A DNA stretch of 64,000 bases. Origin: Candidatus Rifleibacteriota bacterium. Lineage in GTDB: Bacteria > Muiribacteriota > Ozemobacteria > Ozemobacterales > Ozemobacteraceae. The translations under genes were made by a program, and so were the position numbers. The stretch is taken from assembly GCA_015233155.1 (NCBI GenBank), contig JADFYG010000018.1:11000-74999 (forward strand). The letters run 5' to 3'. The notes under the pieces were generated by a model. It saw only the letters and a list, made by a program, of their open reading frames with translations. It did no database searches and was not told the origin of the DNA. Shown piece by piece: positions 37,861-44,804 of this stretch; the first letter of the stretch is position 1; the number at the start of each line of letters is the position of its first letter.

Positions 37861-38855
37861 GACTCCGCTGGCGACAATGTGTCTTCGTGTTATGTGTATT
37901 TCTTTCGGCTTTTCCGCTGATTGCCGACGAGCTTGAAAGCCTGCACTTTACCCCGGTAAGACGATTCTTTGGTATAGGCACGGCCAGCATTAACGGAGCT
38001 TATTTTCCGCTGGGGGCCGCTTTAGCGCGCTTATTTAACGCGCATTTCGACGATATTATGACAATCGCTGAGCCGACGAGCGGCTCTTTGGCGAATCTGG
38101 AGTATCTGCGTAGTGGTGATCTGGCATTGGCGCTCGTTCAAAGTGATCTTGCCTGGGACGCATTTCACGGATTAAGAGCTTTCGCCGGTCATCCTTTTTC
38201 CGATTTGCGAGTTCTGACTGCCTTGCATGCGGAGGTAGTTCAGGTGGCTGTTGCCGCCAGCTCTTCGATTCGATTACTCGGTGAGCTGCGCGGACACCGT
38301 ATAGTCGTCGGCGAGCGCGGCAGCGGGTCGGCTATCAATGCCTCCATGATCCTGGAAACCCTTGGATTATCTTCCAGTGACTATTCAGCGGTATATCTTC
38401 CCTTCACAAAGGCTACCGCCGCAATAGCCGATAGCGAGGCTGATGCGGTTTTCTTTACCGGGGCGGCGCCATCTGAAGGTTTTACAAACCTTGCGGCCCG
38501 CTTACCCATCCGCTTGTTAAGCTTCACATCCGAACAACAACACCGGCTGACCGAAACATATCCGTTCTGGTCCGCGGAAACCGTTCCCGCCGGTTTGTAT
38601 GGTTCGGAAAACCCCGCCGTTTCCACCGTCGGTCTTCGGGCTCTCCTGGTTACGCGCGCATCGCTTGACTCGGCAACGGTAGAAGAGATGCTGAAACTAT
38701 TATTCGGAAATCTTCAGCTGTTAGCGTCAATGAGTCATTCAGCAGCCGGTATCCGGCTTGAAAATGCTCTTAAAAGTGTCGAAACCGGAATGCTTCACGA
38801 AGGTGCCCGCAACTATTTCATAGGTTGCAATATCGCATTGCCGGCTTCGCGATAA
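37857..38855 (+). CDS. TAXI-family TRAP solute-binding protein
   Basis: IGTAS..GAYFP.G, TSGS..NL..L..G..ALVQSD, VGE.GSGS, LHEGA..YF. Confidence 0.88.
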   Translation: MRLRWRQCVFVLCVFLSAFPLIADELESLHFTPVRRFFGIGTASINGAYFPLGAALARLFNAHFDDIMTIAEPTSGSLANLEYLRSGDLALALVQSDLAWDAFHGLRAFAGHPFSDLRVLTALHAEVVQVAVAASSSIRLLGELRGHRIVVGERGSGSAINASMILETLGLSSSDYSAVYLPFTKATAAIADSEADAVFFTGAAPSEGFTNLAARLPIRLLSFTSEQQHRLTETYPFWSAETVPAGLYGSENPAVSTVGLRALLVTRASLDSATVEEMLKLLFGNLQLLASMSHSAAGIRLENALKSVETGMLHEGARNYFIGCNIALPASR

Positions 38856-40348
38856 ATATCAAAACTATCAGAATCATCTGTTTTGCAGTCATGATTCAGT
38901 TCATTTCCGGCATTTCTTTCGCCGACGCCGGGCATGTGGAGCTTAATGCCGGGAAGGCACTGGTCTGCTCAGAAATGTCTCCAAATGCTCAAAGACAGGA
39001 TACAGTCCAGACGATTCTCCAGACGTGGTTTCTGGATCGAATATGCACTTTTCAGAAAATCCTGTCTGACACCCCGATTGGTAATGCAAATCCGAAGATT
39101 GTTAACATTGCAATACCTGAAAAACTCCTACGAATGTATCTCGCGAAGCCCTTCGGAGAAGGGAAATACAGAATTATTTTTGATTCCGCCGAAACGGCAC
39201 GTATGCCGGAATGGGGATATCGACGAATTGAATTCCCCAAAAATCAATCCCTCGAATACATCAGGGGAATTTCGAGATTGAATACGTGTTGGCATGAATT
39301 CCAACATATAATTTTCTTTGAAGCGGAAAAAAAAGGCCTGAAGCTTTCAGTTCGTCCGGTAGATTGGGTAAGATACTGCAAACCACCGCTAGATGCAGTT
39401 GCAGAACATGTATACATCGAGTCTCTGACGGAGAGAACTGTAGAATGGCTTGACATACTTCTCCATGAAAAAACCAAACTGTTTAATGGAGCGGGAATGG
39501 CTTTCACAAAACATATCCTCGAAGCCGCGGATGAGAAAAAGAAGATGCCGGTTTCAGGCATGGCTGAGAATTACCTGACAGAGCATTATATCTGGGCAAA
39601 AGCCCATGATTCATGGGTGAGAGCCTGGAGATTTGCGAAAATGATTGCCCCACTGCCGGGCTTCATGCGAAAGGAATACGCAGCCATAACAGGCGTCTCA
39701 ATCGGAAGTATCGATGAAATCATGTATTTTTTTGCGCAAGGCGGAATGTCTGACAAGGCTGGTAACCAGATTCTTGTTCCCCGCTGGGTCATGCAAACTG
39801 GGGTTTCAAGAAGCCCGCTCTTTATAGGACCGTTCAATGAGCGTCGCGTCGTAAACGCACTTGGTACGAGCATTGAGTTTGACTTTCGTATCCTGGAGGA
39901 TCTGCACTTTGGCGAAAAAAACGGTATATTCCTCGATCGTGGAAAAGTAAATATATCACTGGAGCATCCGGCTCCAGAATGCTTCATTAAATTGGTGCTA
40001 GAAGGCACATCCTTTCATTTTGAGTCGGACAAGGTTCCTGGTAATGCAGTTATTCAAGCCAGTTTGAAGAATTGCCCCAAAGACTGTGTCGCCCATCTCG
40101 TTCTGAATTTCTCTAAATATTCTGTGCCGGACGGAGCAAGCAATGCTCTGAAGATTGAATTCAGAGATGACCCTGTTATACGAAGAGCCCATGAAATTTG
40201 TTCATATGACGTCAATTATTTCGACGAGACACGACGCGCTGCGTCCGAAAAAACAAAATTCAATGTGCCCTTACATGCTTCAAGTCCGATAAGAAAACAA
40301 TATCGATATTATTCAATAAGGGCCACATGCCCGATCAAAAATCATTGA
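38825..40348 (+). CDS. Exported hypothetical protein with an HExxH (HEFQH) zincin-like motif
   Basis: Signal-peptide-like N-terminus; TCWHEFQHIIF at 39293-39307; downstream Glu candidates (AEHVYIE). Confidence 0.6.
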   Translation: MQYRIAGFAINIKTIRIICFAVMIQFISGISFADAGHVELNAGKALVCSEMSPNAQRQDTVQTILQTWFLDRICTFQKILSDTPIGNANPKIVNIAIPEKLLRMYLAKPFGEGKYRIIFDSAETARMPEWGYRRIEFPKNQSLEYIRGISRLNTCWHEFQHIIFFEAEKKGLKLSVRPVDWVRYCKPPLDAVAEHVYIESLTERTVEWLDILLHEKTKLFNGAGMAFTKHILEAADEKKKMPVSGMAENYLTEHYIWAKAHDSWVRAWRFAKMIAPLPGFMRKEYAAITGVSIGSIDEIMYFFAQGGMSDKAGNQILVPRWVMQTGVSRSPLFIGPFNERRVVNALGTSIEFDFRILEDLHFGEKNGIFLDRGKVNISLEHPAPECFIKLVLEGTSFHFESDKVPGNAVIQASLKNCPKDCVAHLVLNFSKYSVPDGASNALKIEFRDDPVIRRAHEICSYDVNYFDETRRAASEKTKFNVPLHASSPIRKQYRYYSIRATCPIKNH

Positions 40349-40469
40349 GAAAAGATCATCAACATTGTTATCAAAGTCACCCAAATAATCGCCAGTTTTG
40401 AGATCTCTTCCGTCGGTCGAGATGACAATGAAGACGGCACACACAAGAAAAAACACTGACTGAGAGCGA

Positions 40470-40707
40470 AAAAGTGTGTGTTTGCCCTGGATGGATCCAT
40501 GGCCATTTAATTCTCACCAAGGCGCGACCGCCGAAGGTGTGAAAAAATGGTCCTTCGAAAAAAGTCAGGTTAGCCTTATTTATGAAAACAAGGTCGTGAT
40601 AATTCGCGGAAGGACAGTAGCGAAGCCGCCAGAAATGGTCTGACGAGGTGCTCAGCAACCATTACGAGACGACGCAGCGTTGTCCTGGAGCGAATTATCA
40701 CGACCGG
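40470..40707. repeat. Cluster of palindromic elements and MITE-end remnants
   Basis: 40470-40489 matches the right end of the 46277 element at 16/20; 40498-40515 matches the left TIR of the 55328 element at 17/18; perfect 16-bp IR at 40592-40607/40690-40705. Confidence 0.7.
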
Positions 40708-40821
40708 TTGGTAAATGCGATTTCACCTCATTCATTCCGGGATTTTCGGGGTTTGCGATTGCCGTGGGGTGGATCGCCCGTGGAGTGCACGTAAACATTT
40801 TGATTGGTATAATATGTCATC

Positions 40822-41736
40822 ATGCTTGAGGAACTGAGACTTATTCCGGGCCCGGAATTTCTTCTGTTGAATGCCATCTTTATCGTCATATGTCTCATCA
40901 TCGCTTTTTTTGTCTGTAAACTGGATATGACGCGTTTGAAATCCGTGCCTGACACGTCTAGTCTCGATCCGATTGAAATTGCATATTTGAGAGGCGGGGT
41001 CACTCTGGTCATTCAGTTGACTCTCTATCATCTCGTCGAGATCGAAGCGATCGAATTTGACACGAATATGTCGAGTACTTCGTTTACATTAGGCCGCAAA
41101 TCAAAAGGGATGTTTGTGGCTAAACGCGGAGCGCATCTGCCGCCATTATCGACTTTCGAACGGTCGCTCATGCGAGAACTCAGCGCACCAATGAGCGGCC
41201 GAGCTCTTCTCAGAGACAGCTCCCTGGTTAGCCTCATCGAAACGCTATGCATCCAGTTTCGCCGAGATCTTATACGGCGCGGCTTTATACATAAAACACA
41301 AGGACATTCAATCAAATGGTTGAGATTTTTATGCTGTATGGCTCTCATCCTTTTGCCCGGTTGCACGAAACTCGTATTAGGTATAATGAACGACAAACCC
41401 GTTATCTTCCTCATTCTTGAGCTGGCGTTTGCAGCATATGCAATGATAATGGAGTGTAACCCAATCAATCCAATTACGAATTTAGGCGAACGTGTGCTCA
41501 AAGATCTTGAGTCGCGGTTCGACTGGATCAAGCAATCGCTTGATAAAAAATCTCTCCCGGATGGCATTTCATCAGCCATGGTGCTCGCTATTTTCGGCTT
41601 GGAGGCCCTGAGTAGCGGTATTTCCGGCTATGCTTTCTATAGTCATTTCAACCCACCCCAGGACACCAGTAGCGGAGGAGGCTCCGGCGGCTGCGGCGGA
41701 GGCTGTGGTGGAGGCTGCGGAGGTTGTGGCGGATGA
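40822..41736 (+). CDS. TIGR04222-domain membrane protein with a Gly/Cys low-complexity C-terminal tail
   Basis: IPGPEFL, LDPIEIAYLRGG...TLYHLVE; three TM helices; tail SSGGGSGGCGGGCGGGCGGCGG (41668-41733). Confidence 0.8.
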   Translation: MLEELRLIPGPEFLLLNAIFIVICLIIAFFVCKLDMTRLKSVPDTSSLDPIEIAYLRGGVTLVIQLTLYHLVEIEAIEFDTNMSSTSFTLGRKSKGMFVAKRGAHLPPLSTFERSLMRELSAPMSGRALLRDSSLVSLIETLCIQFRRDLIRRGFIHKTQGHSIKWLRFLCCMALILLPGCTKLVLGIMNDKPVIFLILELAFAAYAMIMECNPINPITNLGERVLKDLESRFDWIKQSLDKKSLPDGISSAMVLAIFGLEALSSGISGYAFYSHFNPPQDTSSGGGSGGCGGGCGGGCGGCGG

Positions 41737-42938
41737 TCGGATCATGGCTTTCCTCGCTGTTTTATTCGACTTTCCCGCAGACATTCGCTAAAACCGCATC
41801 GTTATCGTGTTCTTCGCGATTCGTTCTGCAGTGGCATTTGACTGATGCCTGCAATCTGAGATGCCGGCATTGCTATGAGTCCGATGCCGGGAAGAATGTG
41901 ATCGCTCGCGACCGGTTTTTCGCGTCTCTGCGCCAATGCCATCAGCTTGTTTCCAATCTGCAGAGAAACCACCCCGAAGTTTCACTGCGCTGCGAACTGC
42001 GTCTTACTGGCGGTGAACCACTGTTACACCCGGATTTTTTTGATCTGCTGGAATGCTGCGGCAACGAAAGTTCATGGCTTGATATATCGATTCTCACCAA
42101 TGGAACTCTCGTAACCCCGGCAATAGCGCGACGAATTGCAGTCGCCAAGCCTCTCTATGTACAGGTAAGCATTGATGGCGCCGAGGCTATGCACGATGGA
42201 ATTCGCGGCAAAGGCAGTTTTGCGGCAGCCGCCAACGGCATAAGCTCCATGCGAGCACTTGATATTCCAGTATCTCTGGCCTTCACTGCGCATCGCGCAA
42301 ATACTTCAGATATTTCCACTGTTGCGGAGTTTGCTGCGAAAGTTGGAGTGAGGCGAATCTGGGCAGATCGAATGATACCTGCCGGGCGAGGTAGTGCATT
42401 CGAAAACGAATTGCTGAGCCCTGAAGAAACGCGATCTTTTTTTCAACTGATGCGACACAGCTGCGATGAGATCCACACGCGATATGGTCGCAACACTGAC
42501 ATGTCTTTTCATAGAGCTCTACAATTCCATGAAGGACGGGGAAAACCATACCGATGCTCTGCCGGCAGGTCTTTGCTTACCGTTCTCGCCGACGGCACCA
42601 TCGTTCCGTGTCGAAGACTTCCCGTGCCATGTGGTTCGATCGAAGACAATGGTCTCTTTAACGCGTTCCATGACAACCCGTTTATTCGAAGCCTTCGCGA
42701 ATTTCGTGGCCCTGCACGCGGTTGCGAGGAATGTCTTTACCAGGGTCTTTGTGAAGGCGGTCTAAGATGCCTCTCTTACGCGATTCATGGTGACCCATTT
42801 CGCGCCGATCCGGGCTGCTGGATTGCTCATCACTCGCCCGGCAAACAGTCTGAGGCACATATTATTCCCGCTATCACTGTTCCACCCATGCGATATTACC
42901 CTGCGAAATCAAGCTGTTTGCCCACTGATAGACACTGA
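41733..42938 (+). CDS. Radical SAM/SPASM-domain protein
   Basis: QWHLTDACNLRCRHCY (CX3CX2C), LTGGEPLL, QVSIDG; SPASM C-x17-C...C-x2-C-x5-C-x5-C-x15-C; ATG 41733 overlaps the upstream TGA (ATGA). Confidence 0.92.
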   Translation: MIGSWLSSLFYSTFPQTFAKTASLSCSSRFVLQWHLTDACNLRCRHCYESDAGKNVIARDRFFASLRQCHQLVSNLQRNHPEVSLRCELRLTGGEPLLHPDFFDLLECCGNESSWLDISILTNGTLVTPAIARRIAVAKPLYVQVSIDGAEAMHDGIRGKGSFAAAANGISSMRALDIPVSLAFTAHRANTSDISTVAEFAAKVGVRRIWADRMIPAGRGSAFENELLSPEETRSFFQLMRHSCDEIHTRYGRNTDMSFHRALQFHEGRGKPYRCSAGRSLLTVLADGTIVPCRRLPVPCGSIEDNGLFNAFHDNPFIRSLREFRGPARGCEECLYQGLCEGGLRCLSYAIHGDPFRADPGCWIAHHSPGKQSEAHIIPAITVPPMRYYPAKSSCLPTDRH

Positions 42939-42949
42939 GGAGAATTCCA

Positions 42950-43690
42950 ATGACAGATCTCTCTGCGGCTCTTTCCCAACTGCCTCCGGAAACACGCGAT
43001 GGAATAACGCTTTTTGTTAAATCCGTGTCCGAAGCGCTCGGGACCGATCTGGTGTCTGTGATTCTCTACGGAAGCGCGGCACGTAGCGACTTTTGCAGCG
43101 GCGAAAGTGATGTAAATTTACTTCTCGTCTTGCGCACAATTGATGTGGCACAGATGCAAAAGCTCATGCCTGTATTTGACAAGAGCCTCCGACTCGGGAT
43201 TTCCCCGATGCTGCTGACACCGGATGAACTCAAATGCTCTGCCGATGCATTTGCCGGGAAGTTTTTCTCGATGCGGGAAGAGCGAAAGGTCCTATACGGG
43301 ATCGACATTCTCGAAAATGTTTCGATTCCGGCAGAGGCACTGCGACTGCGTTGTGAGCAGGAAATCCGGAATATGCTTCTGCGATTGCGGCGCGGCTACC
43401 TGTCACAACGTGGCCGGGATCTCCCGCGTTTACTATGGAGCATGGGGCGACATACGCGCGACATTGTCCGAGTGGCTCTGGCGCTTACTCAAGACGGTAT
43501 TTTGCCGCGAGAACGGGCACTGGAAGCAGCGTCTGTACGCTTCGGATTCGATGCCAGGCCAGTCCAGGAGGTCGAGGGTCTGCGCTCCAACGATTGTCTG
43601 ACGCCGGAGGCTGCAGAGGCTCTTTTTTCCCGATTCCTGAGTGCCATTGCCATAATCACGGATGCAATAGATCGGCTGGTAATCAGGTAA
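42950..43690 (+). CDS. Pol-beta-superfamily nucleotidyltransferase-domain protein
   Basis: SVILYGSAARSDF..GESDVNLLLV; helical C-terminal domain; RBS GAGGAG; 11 bp after the rSAM gene. Confidence 0.8.
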   Translation: MTDLSAALSQLPPETRDGITLFVKSVSEALGTDLVSVILYGSAARSDFCSGESDVNLLLVLRTIDVAQMQKLMPVFDKSLRLGISPMLLTPDELKCSADAFAGKFFSMREERKVLYGIDILENVSIPAEALRLRCEQEIRNMLLRLRRGYLSQRGRDLPRLLWSMGRHTRDIVRVALALTQDGILPRERALEAASVRFGFDARPVQEVEGLRSNDCLTPEAAEALFSRFLSAIAIITDAIDRLVIR

Positions 43691-43856: not shown

Positions 43857-44804
43857 ATGCGTCGGCTTCTTTGTTTACTTTTTGCTCTTCTGATTTTTAT
43901 AACAAGTAGCGGTTGCAGCGATGGCGTCGGCGTCGCCTCCGTGACAACATCTTATGTTGCCATGGGAGCGTCTTTCCTGATGCCGGCCTCACGAATCGCA
44001 ATGGCCAACGTGAAGGGCTCTACATACTGGAAAGATTTTACATTACGCATCAATGGCACAGATTATCCTCCATCCAGCGTCGCAACTGATTCCACTTCCG
44101 CCACGGCAACGATCAATTTCGCTCAAACCTTCGCCAAAACAACCCTGGGTGCAGCCTGGAGTGAAACAGCGAAAACCATAAACAACGTGGAACTCGTGGA
44201 AGGCGGACAGACTGTCGTCTCCATAGCGATGCTTTCAGCCAATGATCAGGCGCCCCACGCATCCACGATGCCTTTGGCAAACACGGTCGTCTTCCAGCTG
44301 GTTCGTGATGCGACAACCGGAGGTCTTATTCTGACGACGCTTTCCGGCACAGCTTCCGCAACCAGTCCCATTACCAGCGGCGCTCAATCGCTTTATCTCG
44401 AAGCCATCAATTATATTGCATCAGGTGGAGCTCTTGCTACCTTGTCAGCTGATGTAACGGATGTATCATATCCAACCGCGTCATTCACCCTGCATTTCAG
44501 TAATGTCGTAGCTTCGGCGACTTCAGGCTGGCTTTTCTCAATGACAGACGTTACCAGCGGAAATCTTTTTACACTTAGCGATGCAAACGGGGAACTCGCG
44601 ATTGCCAACCCGATTCTCGCAAGCGGGCCTTTCGGGTCATGCAGCATCGTTACCATTTCCCTGATCGGAAGCGGCACTGCTCATCAACTTCTGCCGAGTC
44701 ACAAATACACGATGAGCATCGTGAACACATCATTGTGCAGAGCAGACAGCATCTCCACGAAACTGACCAACGCAATCCTCAGAACATTCACGACGAGACC
44801 CTGA
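43857..44804 (+). CDS. Hypothetical lipoprotein with a C-terminal Ig-like domain
   Basis: RBS GGAGG 43846-43850, ATG 43857; lipobox SSG-C; Ser/Thr-rich beta-strand sequence. Confidence 0.7.
   Translation: MRRLLCLLFALLIFITSSGCSDGVGVASVTTSYVAMGASFLMPASRIAMANVKGSTYWKDFTLRINGTDYPPSSVATDSTSATATINFAQTFAKTTLGAAWSETAKTINNVELVEGGQTVVSIAMLSANDQAPHASTMPLANTVVFQLVRDATTGGLILTTLSGTASATSPITSGAQSLYLEAINYIASGGALATLSADVTDVSYPTASFTLHFSNVVASATSGWLFSMTDVTSGNLFTLSDANGELAIANPILASGPFGSCSIVTISLIGSGTAHQLLPSHKYTMSIVNTSLCRADSISTKLTNAILRTFTTRP

Follow-up and report, generated by a model that had tools for sequence, protein, structure and literature searches.

What does a radical S-adenosylmethionine (SAM) enzyme act on when its gene overlaps that of a membrane protein ending in a glycine- and cysteine-rich tail? 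This question is raised by a locus of Candidatus Rifleibacteriota bacterium (assembly GCA_015233155.1), situated in a stretch of 64,000 nucleotides of contig JADFYG010000018.1 (positions 11,000 to 74,999 of the forward strand), which is called the window here and to which all positions refer. The locus consists of the genes for a TIGR04222 membrane protein, a radical SAM/SPASM enzyme and a nucleotidyltransferase-like protein (Table 1). The reading that we favor, with a probability of about 60%, is that of a tail-maturation cassette, in which the tail of the membrane protein is modified by the radical SAM enzyme and stays anchored, with the nucleotidyltransferase-like protein as an accessory. 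The enzyme lacks an RRE, the recognition element for peptides made on the ribosome and modified after translation (RiPPs), i.e., the domain by which such enzymes normally bind their peptide substrate. An earlier interpretation, made from the letters of the window and referred to below as the sequence-only reading, had proposed that the enzyme modifies the tail of an integral membrane protein, which is either kept at the membrane or cleaved off as a peptide.

The protein encoded by the first gene matches the NCBIfam model TIGR04222 with 81 bits (cut-off 43) over residues 18–263, corresponding to model positions 5–228 of 229. C-terminal to this domain, residues 283–304 consist of Gly, Ser and Cys only, the protein ending in SSGGGSGGCGGGCGGGCGGCGG. 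According to Kyte–Doolittle hydropathy, there are three strong hydrophobic helices (residues 13–31, 170–188 and 194–212) and a marginal one (249–267), in line with the sequence-only description of a protein with three transmembrane (TM) helices and a Gly/Cys C-terminus. In the AlphaFold2 (AF2) model, with a mean predicted local distance difference test score (pLDDT) of 87.7, the tail is disordered, and a Foldseek search with this model returned no relatives in the PDB (best E-value 2.3). The stop codon TGA (41734–41736) overlaps the start codon ATG of the enzyme gene (41733–41735) in the sequence ATGA, so that the overlap claimed earlier is seen by direct reading of positions 41733–41736. Moreover, the Gly codons of the tail themselves form a Shine–Dalgarno-like GGAGG (41719–41723), 9 nucleotides 5′ of this ATG. 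There are no other Gly/Cys-tailed open reading frames (ORFs) between positions 38000 and 46000 or elsewhere in the window, and no second Gly/Cys-repeat tail of this kind was found across the whole 6.3-Mb genome. A hidden short precursor was considered and rejected, since the window holds no short Cys-rich ORF; the earlier statement that no separate short precursor is present nearby therefore holds for the ORFs of the window as well as for the genome.

The pairing of such an enzyme with a tailed membrane protein is not confined to this locus. In a scan using one genome per species that listed 600 candidate stretches, at least 348 loci with a gene related to that of the enzyme were recognized; the best 80 of them were used, with 6-kb flanks, for a neighborhood census. 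Partners were detected within 3 kb of the enzyme gene by means of a hidden Markov model (HMM) built from TIGR04222 homologs combined with a simple tail filter. The 80 loci come from approximately 17 phyla; Firmicutes of gut and rumen are represented, as is one archaeon. A maximum-likelihood tree of 81 rows separates an outgroup of 10 from a clade of 71 (support 100/99) to which the window enzyme belongs. Approximately 57 members of this 71-row clade have a Gly/Ser/Cys-tailed ORF within 3 kb, which nearly always shares the strand of the enzyme gene and in most cases is separated from it by less than 100 bp; none of the 10 outgroup rows has a tailed neighbor and every tail-linked enzyme falls within the clade. 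The earlier proposal to check whether this clade is usually accompanied by Gly/Cys-tailed partners has thus been followed up with a positive outcome.

The partners themselves are diverse. TIGR04222 proteins are encoded at approximately 30 loci. In Bacilli, the partners combine the N- and C-terminal parts of DUF2207 in approximately 700 amino acids and end in CSSCGGGCSSCGGGGSW, while Ruminococcus and relatives have a single-pass protein with a DUF2207-N or TPM domain. Sedimenticolaceae encode a Zn-ribbon protein with four TM helices, Spirochaetes a protein with a signal peptide and one TM helix, and in a Campylobacteraceae metagenome-assembled genome (L032:2458–2613) the partner is a mini-protein of 46 amino acids that comprises one TM helix and the tail only (METFLFILFIFVFFIAIVSGDGSSGGSGGSGSGGCGGCGGCGGSGG). 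At least one strong TM helix is present in 53 of the 58 partner ORFs, the exceptions being mostly fragments. Because the partner bodies belong to unrelated families, the enzyme clade appears to track a Cys-bearing Gly/Ser tail on any membrane anchor. The coupling of TIGR04222 to the radical SAM enzyme postulated by the sequence-only reading is therefore recurrent as a pairing, but its conserved element is the anchored tail and not TIGR04222 as such. At one locus (L048:7021–8946), two tandem TIGR04222 paralogs lie beside a single enzyme gene.

A second test was made within the phylum of the window, using 87 species genomes and a threshold of E ≤ 1e-50 for calling the enzyme clade. TIGR04222 scored above its cut-off in 7 of these genomes. 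Each of the 6 genomes with the enzyme clade belongs to these 7 and has both genes within 2 kb of each other (Fisher's exact test, p = 1.4e-8), so that the two distributions nearly coincide. Chance adjacency is rejected by this 2 × 2 table together with the clade-wide census. The cassette is present in 5 of the 39 genera of the phylum, in copies that are only 36–46% identical. This patchy distribution and low identity indicate that it is old, mobile or frequently lost.

The tail is also conserved as a motif. To the window protein were added 113 TIGR04222 homologs shorter than 345 amino acids, giving 114 sequences that were anchored on their last Cys. The 120 best TIGR04222 homologs are only approximately 22–34% identical to the window protein over the domain; the terminal consensus C-G-G-G-C-G-G-C-G-[G/S], however, is nearly fixed. 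CGGC occurs in 105 of the 114 tails and the preceding C-x3 spacing in 74; in 80, the position of the last Cys is two residues from the C-terminus. Over the last 25 residues, the composition is 57% Gly, 19% Cys and 17% Ser. At the DNA level, the tail of the window protein is an imperfect 12-nucleotide repeat with mixed codons. As the repeat is imperfect and its codons are mixed while the protein motif is conserved, selection acts on the tail peptide. For the same reasons, and in view of the protein-level conservation across phyla, a DNA microsatellite artefact was rejected as an explanation of the tail.

The enzyme matches PF04055 with 63.7 bits (cut-off 29.5) and the SPASM domain PF13186 with 26.3 bits (cut-off 21.5). 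In general, the SPASM signature reads CX9-15GX4C, a gap, CX2CX5CX3C, another gap and C. All seven auxiliary Cys are invariant across 28 homologs, and the full SPASM Cys set with the variant CEGGLRC, as reported by the sequence-only reading, is indeed present: the last Cys block is CX2CX5CX5C (CEECLYQGLCEGGLRC), with CX5C in place of CX3C throughout the clade. No NCBIfam model reaches its cut-off on the enzyme, the best of the 25 listed being SbtM (TIGR04082; 134 vs. 350 bits); the families scoring below cut-off include the SbtM, NirJ/AhbC/AhbD, MftC, PqqE, QhpD, PapB, ACGX and GeoRSP equivalogs. Among solved structures, SkfB, PqqE, CteB and anSME (the anaerobic sulfatase-maturating enzyme) are closest by sequence. 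The enzyme contains no N-terminal RRE: its core starts at approximately residue 30, and residues 1–98 of CteB are unmatched. Neither is there a PqqD-like ORF (PF05402) on the window contig; the two hits in the genome lie on contigs C119 and C66. On C119 (33523–35881), two tandem radical SAM/SPASM paralogs (E 1e-25 and 1e-22 to the window enzyme) adjoin a PqqD-like RRE ORF (54 bits). This group looks like a conventional RRE-dependent RiPP-like cluster and offers an internal contrast to the RRE-less cassette. Two further observations concern the enzyme family. A PCRR loop (R294, R295) was considered as a reader of the tail C-terminus and dropped, as the tail-less outgroup has the same residues. 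In another genome, a homolog of the same family (G073:C136:29378–30436) contains one in-frame TGA, which could be due to a pseudogene, a sequencing error or recoding; the TIGR04222 gene of that genome is divergent and 2 kb away.

The features of the cassette are collected in Table 1.

Table 1. Coordinates of the cassette genes and their features within the window.
Feature	Position	Strand	Basis
TIGR04222-domain membrane protein, 304 amino acids, proposed substrate	40822..41736	+	TIGR04222 HMM match
TM1, residues 13–31; short acidic N-terminus ahead predicted outside	40858..40914	+	Kyte–Doolittle 3.15
TM2–TM3 hairpin, residues 170–188 and 194–212	41329..41457	+	Kyte–Doolittle 2.12 and 2.10; 5-residue loop between; AF2 helices 159–189 and 195–212
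Marginally hydrophobic segment, residues 249–276, probably not membrane-spanning	41566..41649	+	Kyte–Doolittle 1.67; AF2 gives three short helices (251–258, 260–266, 268–276)
Gly/Ser/Cys tail SSGGGSGGCGGGCGGGCGGCGG, residues 283–304, proposed modification site, predicted cytoplasmic	41668..41733	+	sequence; homolog motif; topology inference
GGAGG inside tail codons and ATGA stop/start overlap (translational coupling)	41719..41736	+	direct sequence reading
RRE-less radical SAM/SPASM enzyme, 401 amino acids from ATG, proposed tail maturase	41733..42938	+	PF04055 and PF13186
CX3CX2C radical SAM cluster motif: C40, C44, C47, then Y48	41850..41873	+	invariant in 28-homolog alignment and all 81 rows
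SPASM domain, seven auxiliary Cys: C275, C293, C331, C334, C340, C346, C362	42555..42818	+	PF13186; alignments
Pol-beta-type nucleotidyltransferase-like protein, 246 amino acids, accessory third component	42950..43690	+	homologs, AF2, Foldseek

For the enzyme to reach the tail, both have to be on the same side of the membrane. Most likely, the tail lies in the cytoplasm, where a SAM- and reductant-dependent enzyme of the same compartment could reach it. In several partners (L063, L070, L068, L071, L064, L045 and L058), a typical cleavable signal peptide and an ectodomain are followed by exactly one TM helix, a K/R-rich segment and the tail. Those of L043 and L019 start with a Cys4 Zn-ribbon, after which come four TM helices. 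Both architectures would place the tail inside the cell. In fusions of a signal peptide, DUF2207 and a TIGR04222-like domain, the counterpart of the window protein's TM1 comes after the signal peptide and an ectodomain and traverses the membrane in the outside-to-inside direction. In the window protein itself, the N-terminus has one K/R and three D/E residues and the loop after TM1 has 20 K/R; the acidic N-terminus, the K/R-rich loops and the broken fourth helix agree with a cytoplasmic tail. The location of the tail had been singled out for checking by the sequence-only reading, and partner architectures, K/R distribution and the fourth helix as broken in the AF2 model all point to the cytoplasm.

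The third gene was recognized by its recurrence. Homologs of the nucleotidyltransferase-like protein are encoded next to the enzyme or tail gene at 19 of the 80 loci, either directly after the enzyme gene or between both genes. Its AF2 model (pLDDT 93.6) has a two-domain ANT-type fold, with AAD(9), AadA, ANT(4′) and HalB as Foldseek matches (E ~1e-6, TM-score 0.5–0.6), and several homologs match PF01909 above cut-off. The Pol-beta superfamily is characterized by an hG[GS] motif followed by the metal-binding carboxylates D-x-[DE]. Here, the motif is G41...S53-D54-x-N56, with Asn instead of the second Asp of D-x-D in at least 90% of the family (19 homologs). Judging from these residues, the protein may bind rather than transfer a nucleotide, its catalytic competence being uncertain. 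Possible roles would be those of a pseudo-enzyme or of a recognition subunit that binds a nucleotide. In an all-vs-all clustering of 1,973 neighboring ORFs, the only recurrent families besides the tail proteins were this nucleotidyltransferase family, LemA (next to DUF2207, 4 loci) and antisense shadow ORFs. No family of proteases or transporters, including ABC exporters, recurs across 70 neighborhoods, and a PqqD-like RRE is not conserved there either. As the cassette thus lacks a conserved protease or exporter, a tail that stays anchored is favored over one that is cleaved off. The central proposal of the sequence-only reading, i.e., an enzyme acting on a membrane-protein tail, is thus supported by co-occurrence and topology, while its option of cleavage is disfavored.

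From these elements, the following mechanism can be proposed. The TIGR04222 protein would insert with its N-terminus outside, leaving the C-terminal CGGGCGGGCGGCGG tail on the cytoplasmic side. The RRE-less radical SAM/SPASM enzyme, translated together with it, would bind this tail directly and modify it by 5′-deoxyadenosyl radical chemistry. The most likely reaction would be the formation of small thioether rings within the tail, connecting Cys sulfur to the alpha-carbon of a neighboring Gly or Ser (sactionine type). As in CteB, the Cys of the substrate would serve as a ligand to the first auxiliary Fe-S cluster at its open site. After modification, the tail would remain on its membrane anchor and work at the inner membrane face, where it is possibly metal- or redox-active.

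The type of chemistry is the less secure part of this proposal, and we put sactionine-type links from Cys sulfur to the alpha-carbon at somewhat worse than even odds. Thioether chemistry is favored because the thioether synthases SkfB and CteB are among the solved structures nearest to the enzyme in sequence and because seven auxiliary Cys, compared to eight in anSME, leave an open cluster site as in CteB. An alpha-carbon acceptor is suggested by the spacers, which contain only Gly and Ser and in which the alpha C-H is the sole (Gly) or an easily reached (Ser) position. In addition, sactisynthases acting on small repeated motifs are known: GggB and QmpB are described as nonhairpin-forming sactisynthases, and their processing with respect to ring connectivity has been suggested to be akin to that of PapB and NxxcB (PMC10288494).

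Another chemistry on the same substrate, the main rival to thioether formation, seems unlikely, although it has points in its favor. The enzyme would then be an oxygen-independent counterpart of MNIOs (oxidative enzymes that depend on multinuclear non-heme iron) and attack the Cys beta-carbon or the backbone, resulting in heterocycles, thioamides or formylglycine-type residues and in a membrane-tethered metal-binding tail. Among the Cys-containing proteins without a signal peptide that are encoded ahead of MNIO genes, numbering more than 1,000, 40% are TIGR04222 proteins, and subsets of the family are probably MNIO substrates (PMC12452194). The tails have been published as putative MNIO substrates, and MNIO is absent from 490 of the 1,372 complete genomes with TIGR04222, i.e., from a third of them (PMC12452194); radical SAM partners are not mentioned in that study. 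MNIO (PF05114) has no match in the genome of the window, nor in 46 of 50 cassette genomes, and in the other four the MNIO genes belong to bufferin-type operons with no TIGR04222 gene nearby. The radical SAM enzyme occupies the position held by MNIO elsewhere, which suggests an analogous, oxygen-independent maturation, and the cassette hosts are, as judged by record titles, mostly anaerobes or microaerophiles. This mutual exclusion is, however, confounded by phylogeny, as the MNIO-linked proteins are mostly from Actinomycetota. The MNIO operons at L088–L091 (G010, G029, G030) encode DUF2282-like or EGKCG-repeat precursors and a DUF2063-like partner.

The enzyme families also bear on this other chemistry. 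The best NCBIfam match, far below cut-off, is the thio(seleno)oxazole maturase SbtM, and anSME is an RRE-less SPASM enzyme that oxidizes Cys in a full-length protein. However, the 134 bits of SbtM are no better than the NirJ and AhbD scores, and we know of no radical SAM enzyme that makes thiooxazoles de novo. With respect to anSME, the clade is devoid of the eighth auxiliary Cys ligand and the sulfatase-type C-x-P-x-R motif is missing from the tail.

It is quite improbable that the tail is no substrate at all and serves as a Cys-rich docking or Fe-S/metal-binding element that recruits the enzyme to the membrane or supplies it, while the enzyme itself would have some other target, such as another protein, a cofactor or a lipid. 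At the end of the tail, the C-x3-C-x2-C spacing is the same as in the canonical radical SAM cluster motif, so that the tail could ligate an Fe-S cluster; all partners are membrane-anchored, and the cofactor enzymes NirJ, AhbD and PqqE are among the nearest named families, with similar scores. Against this, no conserved gene of a cofactor or lipid pathway accompanies the pair, and the precise C-terminal register on unrelated anchors, down to the mini-protein of 46 amino acids, fits a substrate better than a scaffold. Moreover, in every known case of a characterized SPASM enzyme with a Cys-rich peptide encoded next to it, this peptide is the substrate, as established for AlbA, SkfB, CteB, PapB and QhpD (PMC10288494). 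The classical RiPP route, in which the membrane protein would be a giant leader from which the modified tail is cut off to yield a small Cys/Gly peptide for release or export, has very little probability: the tail resembles RiPP core peptides and the L032 product is hardly more than a tail on a TM helix, but besides the lack of a conserved protease or exporter and the predicted cytoplasmic location, the DUF2207, TPM and TIGR04222 domains are conserved in their own right and have Gly-rich tails even without Cys, which suggests that the tail works in cis.

Several points weigh against the maturation of an anchored, cytoplasmic tail as the function of the cassette. Firstly, a tailed neighbor is missing for approximately 14 of the 71 clade members, although for three of them upstream sequence is lacking. 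The clade is not uniformly tail-linked: a Nitrospirota/Poribacteria sub-clade (L016, L020, L027) has no Gly/Cys-tailed neighbor and instead a conserved downstream protein of approximately 330 amino acids and a PqqD-like ORF of approximately 91 amino acids, as if the enzyme had there moved to another substrate that depends on an RRE. Secondly, the TIGR04222 tails were predicted to be periplasmic in the MNIO study (PMC12452194), contradicting the cytoplasmic location proposed here. The latter was derived from hydropathy and the positive-inside rule applied to the sequences, and in some homologs the fourth hydrophobic stretch scores like a TM helix. Thirdly, the residues specific to the clade (W210, D212, R261, Q264, F265 and Y273) are as yet not tied to the substrate. 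Lastly, thioether formation is proposed by analogy, namely from a CteB-like seven-Cys SPASM domain and small Gly/Ser acceptors.

If the maturation of anchored tails is nevertheless accepted, a wider generalization can be formulated, which is tentative and on balance doubtful. Gly/Cys tails, and other Cys-repeat tails, on membrane anchors would constitute a widespread and unrecognized tail-matured class. On their cytoplasmic end, a dedicated RRE-less radical SAM/SPASM enzyme would assemble a metal- or redox-active structure resembling a cofactor, as the oxygen-independent counterpart of MNIO, in the same way as anSME relates to the formylglycine-generating enzyme FGE. The ANT-fold protein with its D-x-N motif would be the recognition or activation subunit that takes the place of the RRE.

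Upstream of the cassette, the ORF at 38825–40348 (507 amino acids) has no Pfam or NCBIfam match and no homolog among the 80 related loci, and the intergenic region between this ORF and the cassette (40349–40821) contains palindromic elements. On the 3′ side, the ORF at 43857–44804 starts with a lipoprotein-type signal (MRRLLCLLFALLIFITSSGC); its only family match is a weak one to NEAT (E 0.006), and it is not conserved beside the cassette elsewhere. Rfam, promoter and terminator scans of the locus yielded nothing informative.

A pairing of TIGR04222, DUF2207 or Cys-tail proteins with radical SAM enzymes was not found in the full-text literature, subscription-only papers aside, and no curated NCBIfam model covers the enzyme clade. 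That SPASM enzymes act on Cys in peptides and proteins is already established; the RRE-less radical SAM enzyme as a proposed partner for the tail is what had not been described. The sequence-only reading had spoken of an undescribed precursor format. This is correct for the radical SAM partner, but modification of TIGR04222 tails in situ has already been proposed for MNIO (PMC12452194, 2025). Approximately 15,000 RRE-associated radical SAM enzymes have been gathered in earlier work (PMC10288494); genome mining based on an RRE and a short precursor is blind to an RRE-less clade with a full-length membrane protein's tail as its proposed target. The cassette hence offers a clear candidate enzyme-substrate pair for an uncharacterized SPASM clade as well as a test case for RRE-independent substrate recognition. 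It also indicates a possible fate of the TIGR04222 tails in the third of the genomes without MNIO (PMC12452194), and it bears on the function of the common Gly-rich tails of DUF2207, TPM and TIGR04222 membrane proteins.

Among known systems, the cassette resembles the thioether maturases of sactipeptides and ranthipeptides, such as SkfB, AlbA, CteB, PapB and GggB (PMC10288494), with which it shares a radical SAM core, a seven-Cys SPASM domain and an adjacent Cys-rich target. A profile of the clade matches SkfB with 90.6 bits, CteB with 72 bits and anSME with 65 bits among solved structures. In the case of PapB and GggB, one enzyme processes repeated short Cys motifs. However, the sactipeptide and ranthipeptide synthases come with an RRE, a leader peptide and a protease or exporter, none of which is part of the window cassette, where the substrate would be the C-terminus of a membrane protein of 300–700 amino acids and CX5C replaces CX3C. 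The NCBIfam scores of the window enzyme are far below the cut-offs for PapB (96.5 vs. 340), StsB (68 vs. 625) and SkfB (67 vs. 300).

A second group of relatives acts on Cys within a real protein, as the cassette enzyme is proposed to do. QhpD introduces intra-protein Cys thioethers in QhpC of quinohemoprotein amine dehydrogenase, and anSME, which is likewise RRE-less, converts Cys or Ser into formylglycine in sulfatases. Their similarity to the window enzyme in sequence is very low, the QhpD model giving 63 bits with it (cut-off 453). The substrates of these enzymes are a structured small subunit or carry a C-x-P-x-R motif, whereas the window system has a disordered Gly/Cys tail; an anSME-type C/S-x-P/A-x-R motif does not occur in the window tail, which contains neither Pro nor Arg. 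Moreover, the extra Cys of anSME, which brings its auxiliary Cys to eight, lies in an insertion that is missing from the window clade, as it is from CteB.

The SPASM systems that Haft described in silico, i.e., the ACGX-repeat (TIGR04340), SCIFF and GeoRSP systems, also combine an uncharacterized SPASM maturase with a low-complexity Cys-repeat target. The window enzyme scores 118.7 bits against the ACGX model and 96.5 bits against GeoRSP (cut-off 400 in both cases), and thus falls far short of both models. The targets of these systems are short stand-alone peptides and not the tails of membrane proteins.

With regard to the target, the closest parallel is the MNIO-TIGR04222 system (Microb Genom 2025, PMC12452194). 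Both systems involve a TIGR04222 protein with a Ser/Gly/Cys tail, both have a full-length membrane protein as putative substrate and both are predicted only. They differ in the enzyme, which is an O2-dependent multinuclear iron enzyme in the one case and an oxygen-independent radical SAM/SPASM enzyme in the other, and in the predicted location of the tail, periplasmic for MNIO and cytoplasmic here. Finally, the tail of the radical SAM system is carried by several unrelated membrane anchors.

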